A stretch of 64,000 nucleotides of DNA from Escherichia coli (GTDB lineage Bacteria > Pseudomonadota > Gammaproteobacteria > Enterobacterales > Enterobacteriaceae). The notes under the pieces were generated by a model. The model made no database searches. It worked only from the letters and a program-made list of their open reading frames with translations, and was not told the origin of the DNA. Shown piece by piece: positions 55,207 to 61,400 of the stretch. Within the stretch, counting starts at the first letter, position 1, and each line of letters starts with the position of its first letter. The stretch lies in the NCBI RefSeq assembly GCF_009931435.1, contig NZ_CP043414.1; one strand, written 5' to 3'. The position numbers and the translations under genes were made by a program.

Positions 55207-56709
55207 ATGACAATTTTTGATAATTATGAAGTGTGGTTTGTAATTGGCAGCCAGCATCTGTATGGTCCGGAAACCCTGCGTCAGGTCACCCAACATGCCG
55301 AGCACGTCGTTAATGCGCTGAATACGGAAGCGAAACTGCCCTGCAAACTGGTGCTGAAACCGCTGGGCACCACGCCGGATGAAATCACCGCTATTTGCCG
55401 TGACGCGAATTACGACGATCGTTGCGCTGGTCTGGTGGTGTGGCTGCACACCTTTTCCCCGGCCAAAATGTGGATCAACGGCCTGACCATGCTCAACAAA
55501 CCGTTGCTGCAATTCCACACCCAGTTCAACGCGGCGCTGCCGTGGGATAGCATCGATATGGACTTTATGAACCTGAACCAGACTGCACATGGCGGTCGCG
55601 AGTTCGGCTTCATTGGCGCGCGTATGCGTCAGCAACATGCTGTCGTTACCGGTCACTGGCAGGATAAACAAGCACATGAGCGTATCGGCTCCTGGATGCG
55701 TCAGGCGGTCTCTAAACAGGATACCCGTCATCTGAAAGTTTGCCGCTTTGGCGATAACATGCGTGAAGTGGCGGTCACCGATGGCGATAAAGTTGCCGCA
55801 CAAATCAAATTCGGTTTCTCCGTCAATACCTGGGCAGTTGGCGATCTGGTGCAGGTGGTGAACTCCATCAGCGATGGCGATGTTAACGCGCTGGTCGATG
55901 AGTACGAAAGCTGCTACACCATGACGCCTGCGACACAAATCCACGGCGAAAAACGGCAGAACGTGCTGGAAGCTGCGCGTATTGAGCTGGGGATGAAGCG
56001 TTTCCTGGAACAAGGTGGCTTCCATGCGTTCACCACCACCTTTGAAGATTTGCACGGTCTGAAGCAGCTTCCAGGCCTGGCCGTGCAGCGTCTGATGCAG
56101 CAGGGCTACGGCTTTGCGGGCGAAGGCGACTGGAAAACTGCCGCCCTGCTTCGCATCATGAAAGTGATGTCAACCGGTCTGCAGGGCGGCACCTCCTTTA
56201 TGGAGGACTACACTTACCACTTCGAAAAAGGTAATGACCTGGTGCTCGGCTCCCATATGCTGGAAGTCTGTCCGTCGATCGCCGTAGAAGAGAAACCGAT
56301 CCTCGACGTTCAACACCTCGGGATTGGCGGTAAAGACGATCCTGCCCGCCTGATCTTCAATACCCAAACTGGTCCGGCGATTGTCGCCAGCTTGATTGAT
56401 CTCGGCGATCGTTACCGTCTGCTGGTTAACTGCATCGACACGGTGAAAACGCCGCACACCCTGCCGAAACTGCCGGTGGCGAATGCGCTGTGGAAAGCGC
56501 AGCCGGATCTACCAACCGCTTCCGAAGCGTGGATCCTTGCTGGTGGCGCGCACCACACCGTCTTCAGCCATGCGTTGAACCTCAACGATATGCGCCAGTT
56601 TGCCGAGATGCACGACATTGAAATCACGGTGATTAATAACGACACCCGCCTGCCAGCGTTTAAAGACGCGCTGCGCTGGAACGAAGTGTATTACGGATTT
56701 CGTCGCTAA
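55207..56709 (+). CDS. araA: L-arabinose isomerase, 500 aa
   Basis: Track ORF; [49 protein letters not shown]... Confidence 0.96.
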
Positions 56710-56712
56710 GTA

Positions 56713-56810
56713 GCCGCATCAGGTATGTAACGCCTGATGCGACGCTGACGCGTCTTATCTGGCCTACACGTTCCGATTTTGTAGGCCGGATAAGCAAAGC
56801 GCATCCGGCA
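56713..56810. repeat. REP-like palindromic units in araA-araD spacer
   Basis: GCCGCATCAGGTATGTAACGCCTGATGCGACGC...TGTAGGCCGGATAAGCAAAGCGCATCCGGCA read in sequence; REP family by consensus. Confidence 0.75.
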
Positions 56811-56813
56811 TTC

Positions 56814-56856
56814 TTTTCCCCCTCGCCCCTTTGGGGAGAGGGCCGGGGTGAGGGGA
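56814..56856. repeat. GC-rich imperfect palindrome (boxC-like) immediately upstream of araD SD
   Basis: TTTTCCCCCTCGCCCCTTTGGGGAGAGGGCCGGGGTGAGGGG; CCCCTCGCCCC pairs with GGGGTGAGGGG. Family assignment (boxC-like) is from memory and uncertain. Confidence 0.45.
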
Positions 56857-56877
56857 AACGACCTCTCAGGAGTCAAC

Positions 56878-57573
56878 ATGTTAGAAGATCTCAAACGTCA
56901 GGTTTTAGAAGCCAACCTGGCGCTGCCAAAACACAACCTGGTCACGCTGACCTGGGGCAACGTCAGCGCCGTTGATCGCGAGCGCGGCGTCTTTGTAATC
57001 AAACCTTCCGGCGTCGATTACAACGTCATGACCGCTGACGATATGGTCGTGGTCAGCATCGAAACCGGTGAAGTGGTTGAAGGTACGAAAAAGCCCTCCT
57101 CCGACACGCCAACTCACCGGCTGCTCTATCAGGCATTCCCGTCCATTGGCGGCATTGTGCATACGCACTCCCGCCACGCCACCATCTGGGCGCAGGCGGG
57201 CCAGTCAATTCCGGCAACCGGCACCACCCACGCCGACTATTTCTACGGCACCATTCCCTGCACTCGCAAAATGACCGACGCAGAAATCAACGGCGAATAT
57301 GAGTGGGAAACCGGTAACGTCATCGTTGAAACTTTCGAAAAACAGGGTATCGACGCAGCGCAAATGCCTGGCGTTCTGGTCCATTCTCACGGCCCGTTTG
57401 CATGGGGTAAAAACGCTGAAGACGCAGTGCATAACGCCATCGTGCTGGAAGAAGTCGCTTATATGGGGATTTTCTGCCGCCAGCTTGCTCCGCAGTTACC
57501 GGATATGCAGCAAACATTGCTGGATAAACACTATCTGCGTAAGCATGGTGCGAAGGCATATTACGGGCAGTGA
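56878..57573 (+). CDS. araD: L-ribulose-5-phosphate 4-epimerase, 231 aa
   Basis: Track ORF 56848..57573 trimmed to [48 protein letters not shown]... Confidence 0.95.
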
Positions 57574-57578
57574 TTTAA

Positions 57579-57612
57579 GAGAAGCATCTGGGTAACAGGT
57601 GCTTCTTTTTTA
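57579..57612 (+). terminator. Intrinsic terminator after araD
   Basis: AGAAGCATCTG-ggtaac-AGGTGCTTCT (one mismatch in stem) followed by TTTTTTATTAT, 6 nt after the araD stop. Confidence 0.65.
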
Positions 57613-57619
57613 TTATCAC

Positions 57620-58063
57620 TCAGGCAGCAAGAAAAATTTCTGCCCCTATTCCCTCAATTAACAGTGCTTCTAATGAAGGGGCAATATACACCGCATCATC
57701 AAGATCTAAATTACCAAAACCGACGAGATATAAACCAAACCCCTCTTTTCCTTCGGCATAAAAAATCACTTTTCCGCCTTCATCATCGCCAATCGCCAGA
57801 GCGTGTGGAATATAATCCTGAATATGGTATGCGGCATTCATCTCACTACAGCCTGCGGCTCCCCAAATTCTGATATAAGACGTTGAATCCATCACTTTTA
57901 ATTCAACGTCTGCCATCAGAGTAATAAAGGTTAAATACTCATCAGGAATTGCAATGTGAAAATAATTTTTTATAAGTTGACCGAGTCCACTATAATCTAA
58001 TACGGGTTCCCATGACGCCAGCGTGAATTTTTCATGCAATTTAACAATAGGAAACTTACTCAT
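57620..58063 (-). CDS. Hypothetical protein, 147 aa, SUKH/SMI1-KNR4-like (putative immunity protein)
   Basis: Track ORF; ATG start overlaps upstream ORF stop (ATGA). Segments IPDEYLTFITL, ALAIGDDEGGKVIFY, GLYLVGFGNLDLDDAVYIAPSLEALL resemble the SMI1/KNR4 (SUKH-1) pattern. Assignment by eye only. Confidence 0.6.
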   Translation of the reverse strand: MSKFPIVKLHEKFTLASWEPVLDYSGLGQLIKNYFHIAIPDEYLTFITLMADVELKVMDSTSYIRIWGAAGCSEMNAAYHIQDYIPHALAIGDDEGGKVIFYAEGKEGFGLYLVGFGNLDLDDAVYIAPSLEALLIEGIGAEIFLAA

Positions 58064-58407
58064 TTCATCATCCTTTTCTTATACTTCTGGGGTAAAATAT
58101 CCGTTATAACGCCTTCACCTATAAATCCGGCTTCCCACAGCAGAAACTCACTGCCACAGCTGATCCACGGCATTACAAGTTCAGGATTTAAAAACGCCAT
58201 CTCAAGATTGTGTACCATTTCGCCAGGGTGAATCGTTTTTCCATAGCCGTCGATGTAAATCCGGCAGCCATAACCATATGAAGATAACTCATTAATCCCT
58301 TTAAAAAAGACAGGACAGCCGTAAAAACGGTTAGATGATAACAAAGGGCCACGATGCGATTTTTGCGTTGAAGAGTATAGTGTAATGGTAATCCGAACCT
58401 TTCTCAT
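58060..58407 (-). CDS. Hypothetical protein, 115 aa, no recognisable family
   Basis: Track ORF; ATG preceded by GGAGGG SD (minus strand TTCGGAGGGAAGATG); translationally coupled to the downstream SUKH-like ORF (4-nt overlap). Confidence 0.6.
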   Translation of the reverse strand: MRKVRITITLYSSTQKSHRGPLLSSNRFYGCPVFFKGINELSSYGYGCRIYIDGYGKTIHPGEMVHNLEMAFLNPELVMPWISCGSEFLLWEAGFIGEGVITDILPQKYKKRMMK

Positions 58408-58419
58408 CTTCCCTCCGAA

Positions 58420-58752
58420 TTAATTACGCTCTTCAATCAAATATGTCGTTTTATTAGTCCAGGCGATTATTTTATAGGGTCTGTTAATAATACCTTTCTG
58501 CGTATAATCAGCCATAATTTCTGATGGATACCAACCATAACCAAAGCAAAATAAAGCACCTACATTAATAAGCTCACTAATTACACTTAGTTTCTCATTT
58601 TCATTACTGGTATTTTTGCTAAATCGATCATTGTCGGCAGAAAAACCCAACCGTTGCATTTTTTCAACGTTATCATATCCGGTCACTACCGTTTCAATGA
58701 AATTATCACTTATGCTAACCACTATAATACAATCGCTCGGCAGTGTGTTCAT
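58420..58752 (-). CDS. Hypothetical protein, 110 aa, no recognisable family
   Basis: Track ORF; ATG start; 12-nt gap to next ORF; AT-rich upstream region 58753-58975 likely holds the promoter. Confidence 0.55.
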   Translation of the reverse strand: MNTLPSDCIIVVSISDNFIETVVTGYDNVEKMQRLGFSADNDRFSKNTSNENEKLSVISELINVGALFCFGYGWYPSEIMADYTQKGIINRPYKIIAWTNKTTYLIEERN

Positions 58753-58975
58753 TTCCCCTTGATCCTTCTAAAGTCATTTTTTCACCACAACAATGAATTC
58801 AATAGATATAATGAATATATGCAGCCATTTATATATAATTAGCATTACACCCTAATGCCTTAATATAACCCAAACAGAAATCGTCCGATAATCAGAAAAT
58901 GTAATCATTGAATAAAGCAGGAACCTTTTTATCGCATGAGAAACCGAAGATGGTTGATGCCGTTTCGTCAAACAT

Positions 58976-58995
58976 TACTGTACAAAATATCAGTG
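58976..58995. promoter_or_regulatory. LexA-box-like sequence upstream of polB (one mismatch to CTGT-N8-ACAG)
   Basis: TACTGTACAAAATATCAGTG: CTGT-N8-TCAG. polB is a known SOS gene; the K-12 box as I recall (CTGTATAAAACCACAG) is a perfect match, this one is not. Confidence 0.45.
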
Positions 58996-59001
58996 TTCAG
59001 T

Positions 59002-59034
59002 AAAAAACCAGGCTATAATCAAGCCTGGTTTTTT
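59002..59034. terminator. A-run/hairpin/T-run element just upstream of polB (hairpin loop contains TATAAT)
   Basis: AAAAAACCAGGCTATAATCAAGCCTGGTTTTTT; perfect 7-bp stem CCAGGCT/AGCCTGG. Could terminate transcription from either side and/or supply the polB -10. Confidence 0.55.
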
Positions 59035-59048
59035 GATGGATTTTCAGC

Positions 59049-61400
59049 GTGGCGCAGGCAGGTTTTATCTTAACCCGACACTGGCGGGACACCCCGCAAG
59101 GGACAGAGGTCTCCTTCTGGCTGGCGACGGACAACGGGCCGTTGCAGGTTACGCTTGCACCGCAAGAGTCCGTGGCGTTTATTCCCGCCGATCAGGTTCC
59201 CCGCGCCCAGCATATTTTGCAGGGTGAACAAGGCTTTCGCCTGACGCCGCTGGCGTTAAAGGATTTTCATCGCCAGCCGGTGTATGGCCTTTACTGTCGC
59301 GCCCATCGCCAGTTAATGAATTACGAAAAGCGCCTGCGTGAAGGTGGCGTTACCGTCTACGAGGCCGATGTGCGCCCGCCAGAACGCTATCTGATGGAGC
59401 GGTTTATCACCTCACCGGTGTGGGTCGAGGGTGATATGCGCAATGGCGCTATCGTTAATGCCCGTCTGAAACCGCATCCCGACTACCGCCCGCCGCTCAA
59501 GTGGGTTTCTATTGATATTGAAACCACCCGCCACGGTGAACTGTACTGCATCGGTCTGGAAGGCTGCGGGCAGCGCATCGTTTATATGCTGGGGCCGGAG
59601 AATGGCGATGCCTCCGCGCTTGATTTCGAACTGGAGTACGTCGCCAGTCGTCCGCATCTGCTGGAAAAACTCAACGCCTGGTTTGCTAACCACGATCCCG
59701 ATGTGATCATCGGCTGGAACGTGGTGCAATTCGATCTGCGAATGCTGCAAAAACATGCCGAGCGTTATCGTATTCCGCTGCGGCTGGGGCGCGATAACAG
59801 TGAGCTGGAGTGGCGCGAGCACGGCTTTAAAAACGGTGTCTTTTTTGCCCAGGCCAAAGGGCGGCTAATTATCGACGGTATCGAGGCACTGAAATCCGCG
59901 TTCTGGAATTTCTCTTCATTCTCGCTGGAAACCGTCGCTCAGGAGTTATTAGGCGAAGGAAAATCTATCGATAACCCGTGGGATCGGATGGACGAAATTG
60001 ACCGCCGTTTCGCCGAAGATAAACCTGCGCTAGCAACTTATAACCTGAAAGATTGCGAACTGGTGACGCAGATCTTCCACAAAACTGAAATCATGCCGTT
60101 TTTACTCGAACGAGCGACGGTTAACGGCCTGCCGGTAGATCGGCACGGGGGATCGGTGGCGGCGTTTGGTCATCTCTATTTTCCGCGAATGCATCGCGCT
60201 GGTTATGTCGCGCCTAATCTCGGCGAAGTGCCGCCGCACGCCAGCCCTGGCGGCTATGTGATGGATTCGCGGCCTGGGCTTTATGATTCGGTACTGGTGC
60301 TGGACTATAAAAGCCTGTACCCGTCGATCATCCGCACCTTTCTGATTGATCCCGTCGGACTGGTAGAAGGTATGGCGCAGCCTGATCCAGAGCACAGTAC
60401 CGAAGGCTTTCTCGATGCCTGGTTCTCGCGGGAGAAACATTGCCTGCCGGAGATTGTGACTAACATCTGGCACGGGCGCGATGAAGCCAAACGCCAGGGC
60501 AATAAACCGCTGTCGCAGGCGCTGAAGATCATTATGAATGCCTTTTACGGCGTGCTCGGTACTACCGCCTGTCGCTTCTTCGATCCGCGCCTGGCATCGT
60601 CGATCACCATGCGTGGTCATCAGATCATGCGGCAAACCAAAGCGTTGATTGAAGCGCAGGGCTACGACGTGATCTACGGCGATACCGACTCAACGTTTGT
60701 CTGGCTGAAAGGCGCACATTCGGAAGAAGAAGCGGCGAAAATCGGTCGTGCACTGGTGCAGCACGTTAACGCCTGGTGGGCAGAAACGTTGCAACAGCAA
60801 CGGCTGACTAGCGCACTGGAATTGGAGTATGAAACCCATTTCTGCCGTTTTCTGATGCCAACCATTCGCGGAGCCGATACCGGCAGTAAAAAACGTTATG
60901 CCGGGCTGATTCAGGAGGGCGATAAGCAGCGGATGGTGTTTAAAGGGCTGGAAACCGTGCGCACCGACTGGACACCGCTGGCCCAGCAGTTTCAGCAGGA
61001 GCTATATCTACGTATCTTCCGCAACGAGCCATATCAGGAGTACGTCCGCGAAACCATCGACAAACTGATGGCTGGCGAACTGGATGCACGGCTGGTTTAC
61101 CGTAAACGCCTTCGCCGTCCACTGAGCGAATACCAGCGTAATGTGCCGCCTCATGTACGCGCCGCACGCCTTGCGGATGAAGAAAACCAAAAGCGCGGTC
61201 GCCCCTTGCAATATCAGAACCGCGGCACCATTAAGTACGTATGGACCACCAACGGCCCGGAGCCGCTGGACTACCAACGTTCACCGCTGGATTACGAACA
61301 CTATCTGACCCGCCAGCTACAACCCGTGGCGGAGGGAATACTCCCTTTTATTGAGGATAATTTTGCTACACTTATGACCGGGCAACTTGGGCTATTTTGA
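59049..61400 (+). CDS. polB: DNA polymerase II (family B), 783 aa, GTG start
   Basis: Track ORF; (M)[40 protein letters not shown]...; exonuclease and polymerase motifs (YGDTDS) present. Confidence 0.96.

Follow-up and report, generated by a model that had tools for sequence, protein, structure and literature searches.

The araA-araD spacer and its coding flanks

In the window, by which we mean the whole 64,000-nucleotide stretch of Escherichia coli DNA that was analysed, araA and araD lie on the plus strand and are separated by a short intergenic spacer. The features of the two genes and of the spacer are as follows.

55207-56709, plus strand: araA ORF (annotation of homologous E. coli loci)
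56707-56709, plus strand: araA stop codon, TAA
56710-56877: araA-araD spacer, 168 bp
about 56713-56726, plus strand: truncated REP tail, GCCGCATCAGGTAT (alignment with multi-unit alleles)
56732-56767, plus strand: Y-type REP, GCCTGATGCGACGCTGACGCGTCTTATCTGGCCTAC, with its CTAC end facing araD (Y half of naRNA4; K-12 alignment)
56768-56780, plus strand: inter-REP linker, 13 nt, ACGTTCCGATTTT
56781-56809, plus strand: Z2-type REP, inverted, GTAGGCCGGATAAGCAAAGCGCATCCGGC (inverted repeats, MFE structure, alignment with K-12 units)
56812-56858, plus strand: BoxC (also PIT or TMECO) element, type B (consensus match, multi-copy occurrence, RNA hairpin)
56820-56855, plus strand: BoxC core, 36 nt, CCCTCGCCCCTTTGGGGAGAGGGCCGGGGTGAGGGG (regex match to the consensus)
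56859-56867, plus strand: junction between BoxC and the Shine-Dalgarno sequence, CGACCTCTC; BoxC-free alleles have only CGA here
56868-56872, plus strand: araD Shine-Dalgarno sequence AGGAG, 5 nt 5' of the ATG
56878-57573, plus strand: araD, L-ribulose-5-phosphate 4-epimerase, 231 aa, with its ATG at 56878-56880 (E. coli locus annotation)

The spacer length of 168 bp given in an earlier note on this DNA proved correct, as did its remark that the spacer is shorter than that of K-12, which measures 284 bp in MG1655 (quoted there as about 285 bp). The coding sequences flanking the spacer are 95-98.8% identical to those of complete E. coli genomes, the exact AraD protein of the window is encoded in very many public assemblies, and an alignment of the E. 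coli alleles revealed that the AGGAG motif is kept in all of them. The program-called reading frame containing araD runs from 56848 to 57573, starting at a GTG that lies inside the BoxC element and in frame with araD. This start would add ten codons to araD, and no Shine-Dalgarno sequence is found 5' of it. The BoxC-internal GTG is a possible cause of miscalled araD starts in genomes carrying the BoxC allele, a point of caution for annotation.

On the other side of araD, the stretch from its stop codon toward polB (GTG at 59049) contains a segment of about 1.43 kb (57574-59005) that is absent from most E. coli genomes. In genomes lacking it, polB starts 74 nt past araD, and only few E. coli genomes cover 57574-59005. 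The segment carries three ORFs.

57620-58063, minus strand: ORF
58060-58407, minus strand: ORF
58420-58752, minus strand: ORF

For the ORF at 57620-58063, a match to SUKH-1/SMI1_KNR4 was obtained that stays below threshold (21.1 bits versus a cut-off of 25.4). This match may point to orphan immunity genes.

The araA-proximal part of the spacer is a single REP pair

Read 5' to 3' on the mRNA-sense strand, the spacer is composed of the truncated REP tail, the Y REP, the linker, the inverted Z2 REP, BoxC, nine nucleotides and the Shine-Dalgarno sequence. The REP tail is homologous to the 3' end of the Z2 REP and the linker as they occur at unit junctions, and it forms a direct repeat with 56800-56811. 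Its arm at 56715-56723 pairs with 56733-56741 in a fully complementary inverted repeat of 9 nt (100%). The Y and Z2 REPs, in turn, pair with each other as one long BIME hairpin, as seen in both the inverted repeats and the MFE structure. The REP units of the spacer align base for base with those of K-12. The second REP is presumably of the Z2 type, as judged partly from the consensus and partly from identity with the K-12 units.

BIME-2 elements (Gilson, Bachellier, Hofnung; reviewed in PMC3333891) are described as y and z2 REPs in tandem, with strain-variable copy number as a defining property; the Y/Z2 unit composition is also given in PMC4550694. In the spacer, Y and Z2 units alternate in orientation with a short linker between them, and the number of tandem copies at this one locus differs between strains, amounting to one, two or three units. 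The ara repeats therefore resemble known REP/BIME-2 arrays in their 85-bp unit, in their one to three tandem copies depending on the strain, and in their position 3' of a gene inside an operon. They differ in that the window has one unit only, followed on the araD side by BoxC instead of another unit.

A permissive Rfam search returned naRNA4 (RF02564) as the only match, which originates from the Y REP and, at 30.7 bits, stays below the gathering score of 59.5. We rejected the presence of an naRNA4 RNA gene, given the score below gathering level, and attribute the match to a shared repeat. In line with this, the spacer has the same Z2-linker-Y units as naRNA4/REP325 (RF02564; PMC4550694), and the Y half of the model fits 56732-56764, whereas the Z2 half does not align in the order of the model.

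The palindrome preceding araD is a BoxC element

The earlier note had pointed to a GC-rich palindrome in front of the araD Shine-Dalgarno sequence, and such a palindrome indeed exists. Its arms, 56816-56829 and 56845-56858, are 86% complementary, and the gap to AGGAG is 9-11 nt, close to the 12 nt estimated before. On the mRNA-sense strand, it presents a pyrimidine block on the 5' side and two purine blocks on the 3' side. The palindrome is a BoxC element, a motif that was first named in the 1990s and rediscovered in 2000 as the PIT (potential intrastrand triplex) element of Hoyne and Maher (Holder et al. 2015, PMC4666352). The core fits the consensus CCCTCNCCC-N3-6-GGGNGAGGG-N3-GGGNGAGGG exactly and is the sole regex match in the 64-kb window; the full published TMECO consensus reads 5'-CCCTCNCCC N3-6 GGGNGAGGG N3 GGGNGAGGG[G/T/C/-]-3' (PMC4666352). 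Moreover, the core is identical in 36 of 36 bases to K-12 TMECO no. 3, a copy listed as 'type B mm' from the yagA-yagE intergenic region (PMC4666352 Table 1), and the flanks TTTTCC and xAA are common to both copies. TMECO subtypes are told apart by the second loop, which is TTA in type A and CCG in type B (PMC4666352); the second loop of the window element is CCG, placing it in type B.

The element also behaves as a dispersed repeat. Of 5426 complete E. coli genomes, 5327 gave matches to a 65-nt query around the window copy, with a median of 14 and a maximum of 30 places per genome, and the 23-nt purine half gave no chance match in 100 shuffles. These numbers can be set beside published counts of 23 K-12 copies by the strict TMECO motif (PMC4666352) and of 22-32 copies of 50-56 bp for E. 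coli BoxC (PMC2267715). Located between the araA stop at 56709 and the araD start at 56878, the window copy is intergenic, and it shares with the BoxC/PIT/TMECO family its multi-copy nature and its strain-variable presence. Distinctive are its context and distribution: K-12 has no copy at araA-araD, and the window copy resides inside an operon, beside a BIME and 9-11 nt from a Shine-Dalgarno sequence. Neither the main text nor two supplement files of Holder et al. 2015 (PMC4666352) mention the araA-araD site by name, and a literature search for ara-specific REP or BoxC work found none.

Rather than a locus-specific regulatory hairpin, the palindrome is one copy of a dispersed repeat, BoxC/PIT/TMECO. 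The araA-araD spacer as a whole is thus made of two known dispersed repeat families, one REP pair and one BoxC.

Four spacer alleles segregate in E. coli

The earlier note had proposed a comparison of the spacer across strains. Using a query in which the araA end was joined directly to the araD start, we obtained a sample of 59 E. coli genomes, in which the spacer takes four discrete lengths and no others.

114 bp: one Y+Z2 unit; 5 of 59 sampled genomes
168 bp (169 in one genome): one unit plus the BoxC-containing segment; 21 of 59 sampled genomes
199 bp: two units; 11 of 59 sampled genomes
284 bp (K-12): three units; 22 of 59 sampled genomes

Spacers taken from annotated E. coli genomes likewise form this modular series. 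In the K-12 spacer, Tandem Repeats Finder detected a period of 85 bp in 3.1 copies with 96% matches. Compared to K-12, the window lacks two 85-bp BIME units and carries an additional BoxC segment of 54 bp. The earlier note had called the difference from K-12 consistent with variation in REP copy number, and this holds for the 85-bp unit, which is present one to three times; as the BoxC segment is absent from K-12, however, copy number alone does not account for the difference, and the 54-bp segment contributes as well. Relative to the 114-bp allele, the 168-bp allele can be aligned as differing either by 48 bp and 6 bp around a retained CGA, or by 54 bp together with three substitutions. A simple BoxC insertion accompanied by a target-site duplication was rejected, there being no clean flanking direct repeat. 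At a coverage of at least 80%, a query spanning the BoxC-araD junction matched 1568 of 5426 complete E. coli genomes (28.9%), and BoxC is missing from araA-araD in 71% of E. coli genomes.

Aligned to a typical E. coli 168-bp allele, the window shows seven differences in the REP part, which takes up the first 106 nt, and none in the last 62 nt, comprising BoxC and the Shine-Dalgarno sequence. This split of seven versus zero is compatible with homogenisation among BoxC copies, though at a flank divergence of about 4% it is statistically not compelling. Outside E. coli proper, Escherichia sp. MOD1-EC7003, a non-coli representative of the genus, has a 284-bp, three-unit spacer consisting of REPs only, with a GGCACGAAGGAG junction as in K-12; the REP-only form is accordingly not confined to E. 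coli proper.

Predicted RNA structure and transcription signals

Folding of the RNA at 56700-56890, likewise proposed in the earlier note, yielded a strong structure of -82.1 kcal/mol (z = -4.2), with none of 200 shuffles folding as well; for the spacer, z ranged from -4.2 to -5.6. Three main hairpins are predicted: the REP tail with the 5' arm of the Y REP, the 3' arm of the Y REP with the Z2 REP, and BoxC. The first of these begins 6 nt past the araA stop. The BoxC hairpin alone was calculated at -26.5 kcal/mol (-24.1 for the opposite strand), a very stable predicted stem-loop, in agreement with the stable one that the earlier note had considered.

Strong GC hairpins of this kind raise the question of whether the palindrome acts as an intrinsic terminator, or marks an internal promoter, that splits araBA from araD, all the more as other species have a hairpin followed by a T-run at the same position. 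In the window, no U- or T-run follows the BoxC stem on either strand, the sequence continuing as GGGGAAACGACC on the plus and as GAAAAGAATG on the minus strand; where an intrinsic terminator has its U-run, the stem is followed by AAACGACC. In addition, a consensus scan of 56710-56877 detected neither a terminator-like nor a sigma-70-like promoter site. The empty scan agrees with the work of Hoyne and Maher which, in the form in which it is cited in PMC4666352, reports neither promoter nor terminator activity for PIT elements when tested. We consider a terminator or promoter role of the palindrome extremely improbable.

On the mRNA-sense strand, the purine half of BoxC (56833-56855, GGGG-AGA-GGG-CC-GGGG-TGA-GGGG) has the four tracts of a canonical G-quadruplex motif. 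G4-aware folding assigned -12.6 kcal/mol to the quadruplex alone and -29.6 to the hairpin, which outcompetes it, and we therefore rejected an RNA G-quadruplex in this half.

The same motif can be viewed at the level of DNA, where BoxC, as a triplex or G-quadruplex former, and the BIME, as a gyrase binder, could together constitute a topological or replication-pausing element, or a hotspot of recombination and instability, between araBAD and polB. Oligonucleotides of nearly the same sequence as the G-rich strand adopt an intrastrand purine-motif triplex in vitro, as followed by CD and NMR; these TMECO triplexes are stable, and TMECO loci are more strain-variable than controls (PMC4666352). For REP/BIME-2 elements, binding or cleavage by DNA gyrase and binding by Pol I have been described in references given in PMC3333891, which identify BIME-2 elements as gyrase targets. 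Furthermore, strains differ at the araA-araD site in the presence of BoxC as well as in BIME copy number. In the published experiments, on the other hand, duplex DNA yielded no signal of a triplex, and DMS footprinting in vivo revealed no protection (PMC4666352). Moreover, the hairpin prevails over the quadruplex in the RNA context, and the occurrence of only four discrete alleles in 59 genomes indicates that the site does not hypermutate over short periods. A dedicated DNA-level role of this kind appears distinctly unlikely.

BoxC adds no predicted effect on the araD ribosome-binding site

The earlier note had suggested that the palindrome may modulate araD translation. With its stem ending 9-11 nt 5' of the Shine-Dalgarno sequence, BoxC could in principle be a regulatory hairpin specific to this locus, one that adjusts araD translation by blocking or freeing the ribosome-binding site. 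Two features of the fold would fit such a function: CGACCTCTC can pair with GGAG of the Shine-Dalgarno sequence in a weak hairpin of 5 bp, and the probability of being unpaired is only 0.11-0.22 for the last three Shine-Dalgarno bases. We calculated ensemble opening energies for seven spacers, each extended by 40 nt of araA and 45 nt of araD. Opening of the Shine-Dalgarno sequence costs 2.66 kcal/mol in the window and 1.7-2.9 kcal/mol in BoxC-free alleles, and opening of the ribosome-binding site (-18 to +12) costs 6.37 kcal/mol compared to 5.1-7.8 kcal/mol; the unpaired probabilities are equally low in the BoxC-free alleles. In these alleles, the Z2 REP stem stops 3 nt 5' of the Shine-Dalgarno sequence, and a stable hairpin abutting it is thus common to all alleles. 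As the values of the window fall within the BoxC-free range, no separate effect of BoxC on the ribosome-binding site is predicted. We rejected allele-specific occlusion by BoxC on these grounds, and the suggested modulation of araD translation by the palindrome is left unsupported. Apart from the energies, BoxC is a generic repeat with at least 14 places per genome, it is missing from this site in 71% of E. coli genomes, and a published survey detected no connection of TMECO position with gene regulation (PMC4666352). Taken together, a hairpin dedicated to tuning araD is quite improbable.

Hairpins are predicted before araD in all enterobacterial species examined

To place the E. coli alleles in a wider context, one genome per species was scanned with the araD start sequence, resulting in 49 enterobacterial loci with 48 readable spacers. 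Spacer length across species ranges from 47 to 284 nt. Folding of the 48 species' spacers gave a median z of -4.1, with z < -2 in 37 of them. A stem of at least 7 bp occurs in every one of 49 spacers (48 species and the window), its 3' foot lying 0-33 nt (median 13) before the ATG. The hairpins belong to at least three unrelated types: REP-like, BoxC-like, and a GC hairpin with a T-run. The last type is found directly 5' of the araD Shine-Dalgarno sequence in Citrobacter freundii, Atlantibacter, Silvania, Entomohabitans, Huaxiibacter and relatives, and from its sequence resembles an operon-internal intrinsic terminator. Contig CACSKA010000010.1, from an assembly labelled 'Chryseobacterium sp. 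18061', also carries an araA-araD locus of the usual enterobacterial kind, with REPs of the E. coli type; this assembly is probably contaminated or mislabelled.

BoxC-like cores were detected in the spacers of nine species, namely Pseudocitrobacter, Phytobacter, Kluyvera, Buttiauxella brennerae and five Klebsiella. As a rule, these cores are present as an inverted pair, of which the araD-proximal copy is oriented as in the window and has an offset of -43 to -53 from araD, the window copy lying at -44. In total, 16 BoxC-like matches fall into 4.4 kb of spacers, compared to one weak match in the approximately 410 kb that make up the rest of these loci. BoxC-like sequence is thus enriched in these spacers, with the qualification that the species are related and that such repeats settle where intergenic DNA tolerates them. 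The minor new point of our analysis is that a strong hairpin is predicted just 5' of araD in all 48 other species, and that it is BoxC-like in nine.

The offset from araD that the window copy shares with BoxC-like copies in other genera argues for an old element at araA-araD. Conversely, the window BoxC is nearly identical to a paralogous copy in K-12, and the examined Salmonella and Citrobacter araA-araD spacers lack the element; both observations argue for a recent gain or a gene conversion. Sharing of the 3' GGGGAAC is not evidence of orthology, because this sequence belongs to the element itself.

The cross-species data also bear on whether a strong hairpin 5' of the araD ribosome-binding site is functionally required, with REP, BoxC or a unique hairpin being interchangeable. 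Such a selected hairpin could shield araBA from decay, protect the 5' end of a processed araD segment, or set the AraBA:AraD ratio through partial termination, and the E. coli alleles would then differ quantitatively in expression. The universal stem near the araD ATG, the low z-scores, the use of at least three unrelated hairpin types and the concentration of BoxC-like matches in the spacers are all in favour. So is the toxicity of L-ribulose-5-phosphate, which makes the balance between AraBA and AraD physiologically relevant (PMC7269641) and quantitative differences between alleles conceivable. Against this, structure is expected even without selection, as hairpin-forming repeats settle wherever intergenic DNA tolerates them. 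Furthermore, the species are phylogenetically related, with Klebsiella making up five of the nine BoxC-bearing ones, and E. coli tolerates one to three BIME units with or without BoxC, suggesting a loose constraint. We regard a functional requirement for the hairpin as possible but doubtful. The more far-reaching proposal, that an interchangeable REP, BoxC or unique hairpin has been selected across Enterobacteriaceae and that the four E. coli alleles set heritable AraBA:AraD ratios and thereby tolerance of L-ribulose-5-phosphate, strikes us as unlikely.

Discussion

The araA-araD spacer of the window consists of a REP tail, one BIME-2-type unit and a BoxC of type B. We think it probable that these are transcribed as part of the araBAD mRNA, where their hairpins would act as passive barriers to decay, and that BoxC is a neutral or selfish DNA repeat without a dedicated function. 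The three strong hairpins of the spacer would, by analogy with other REP sequences, passively block 3'-to-5' exonucleases and so protect the upstream araBA segment, and perhaps they are also weak attenuators of transcription. BoxC would merely add one more passive hairpin. At the DNA level, it is probably neutral or selfish. The local sequence instability linked to BoxC fits its presence/absence polymorphism at araA-araD, and TMECO loci are hypervariable between strains (PMC4666352).

Stabilisation of araBA by the spacer hairpins is plausible by analogy with REP stabilisers. An mRNA stabiliser of the REP type, for example at malE-malF, was reportedly described by Newbury et al. in 1987. Like these stabilisers, the ara spacer contains predicted stable intercistronic stem-loops 3' of the more highly expressed proximal genes. 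REPs located less than about 15 nt from a stop codon are also said, in work of Liang, Rudd and Deutscher from 2015, to reduce upstream protein synthesis via ribosome stalling. BoxC itself is not known to stabilise mRNA and, to our knowledge, attempts to find a function for it have all failed so far. REPs stabilise mRNA and BIMEs attenuate transcription (PMC3333891), with Khemici & Carpousis 2004 among the works cited there on REP mRNA stabilisers. Several points weigh against the passive reading of the spacer: the mRNA-barrier role is drawn by analogy only, and both the strong stem 0-33 nt before the araD ATG in 48 of 48 other species and the BoxC-like sequence at the same araD offset in several genera could mean that the structure is selected rather than tolerated.

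Both repeat families and the polymorphic character of the site were already known. With known repeats in one of the four common spacer lengths, the feature is genuine but unremarkable, and as REP and BoxC have been known for decades, its overall importance is small. What the locus does offer is a natural allelic series of 114, 168, 199 and 284 bp in a classic, easily induced operon. The series makes a convenient test bed, well suited to asking whether BoxC or extra BIME units alter the decay of the mRNA or the expression of proximal relative to distal genes. The recurrence of BoxC-like hairpins at the same araD offset in several genera adds further, modest value.
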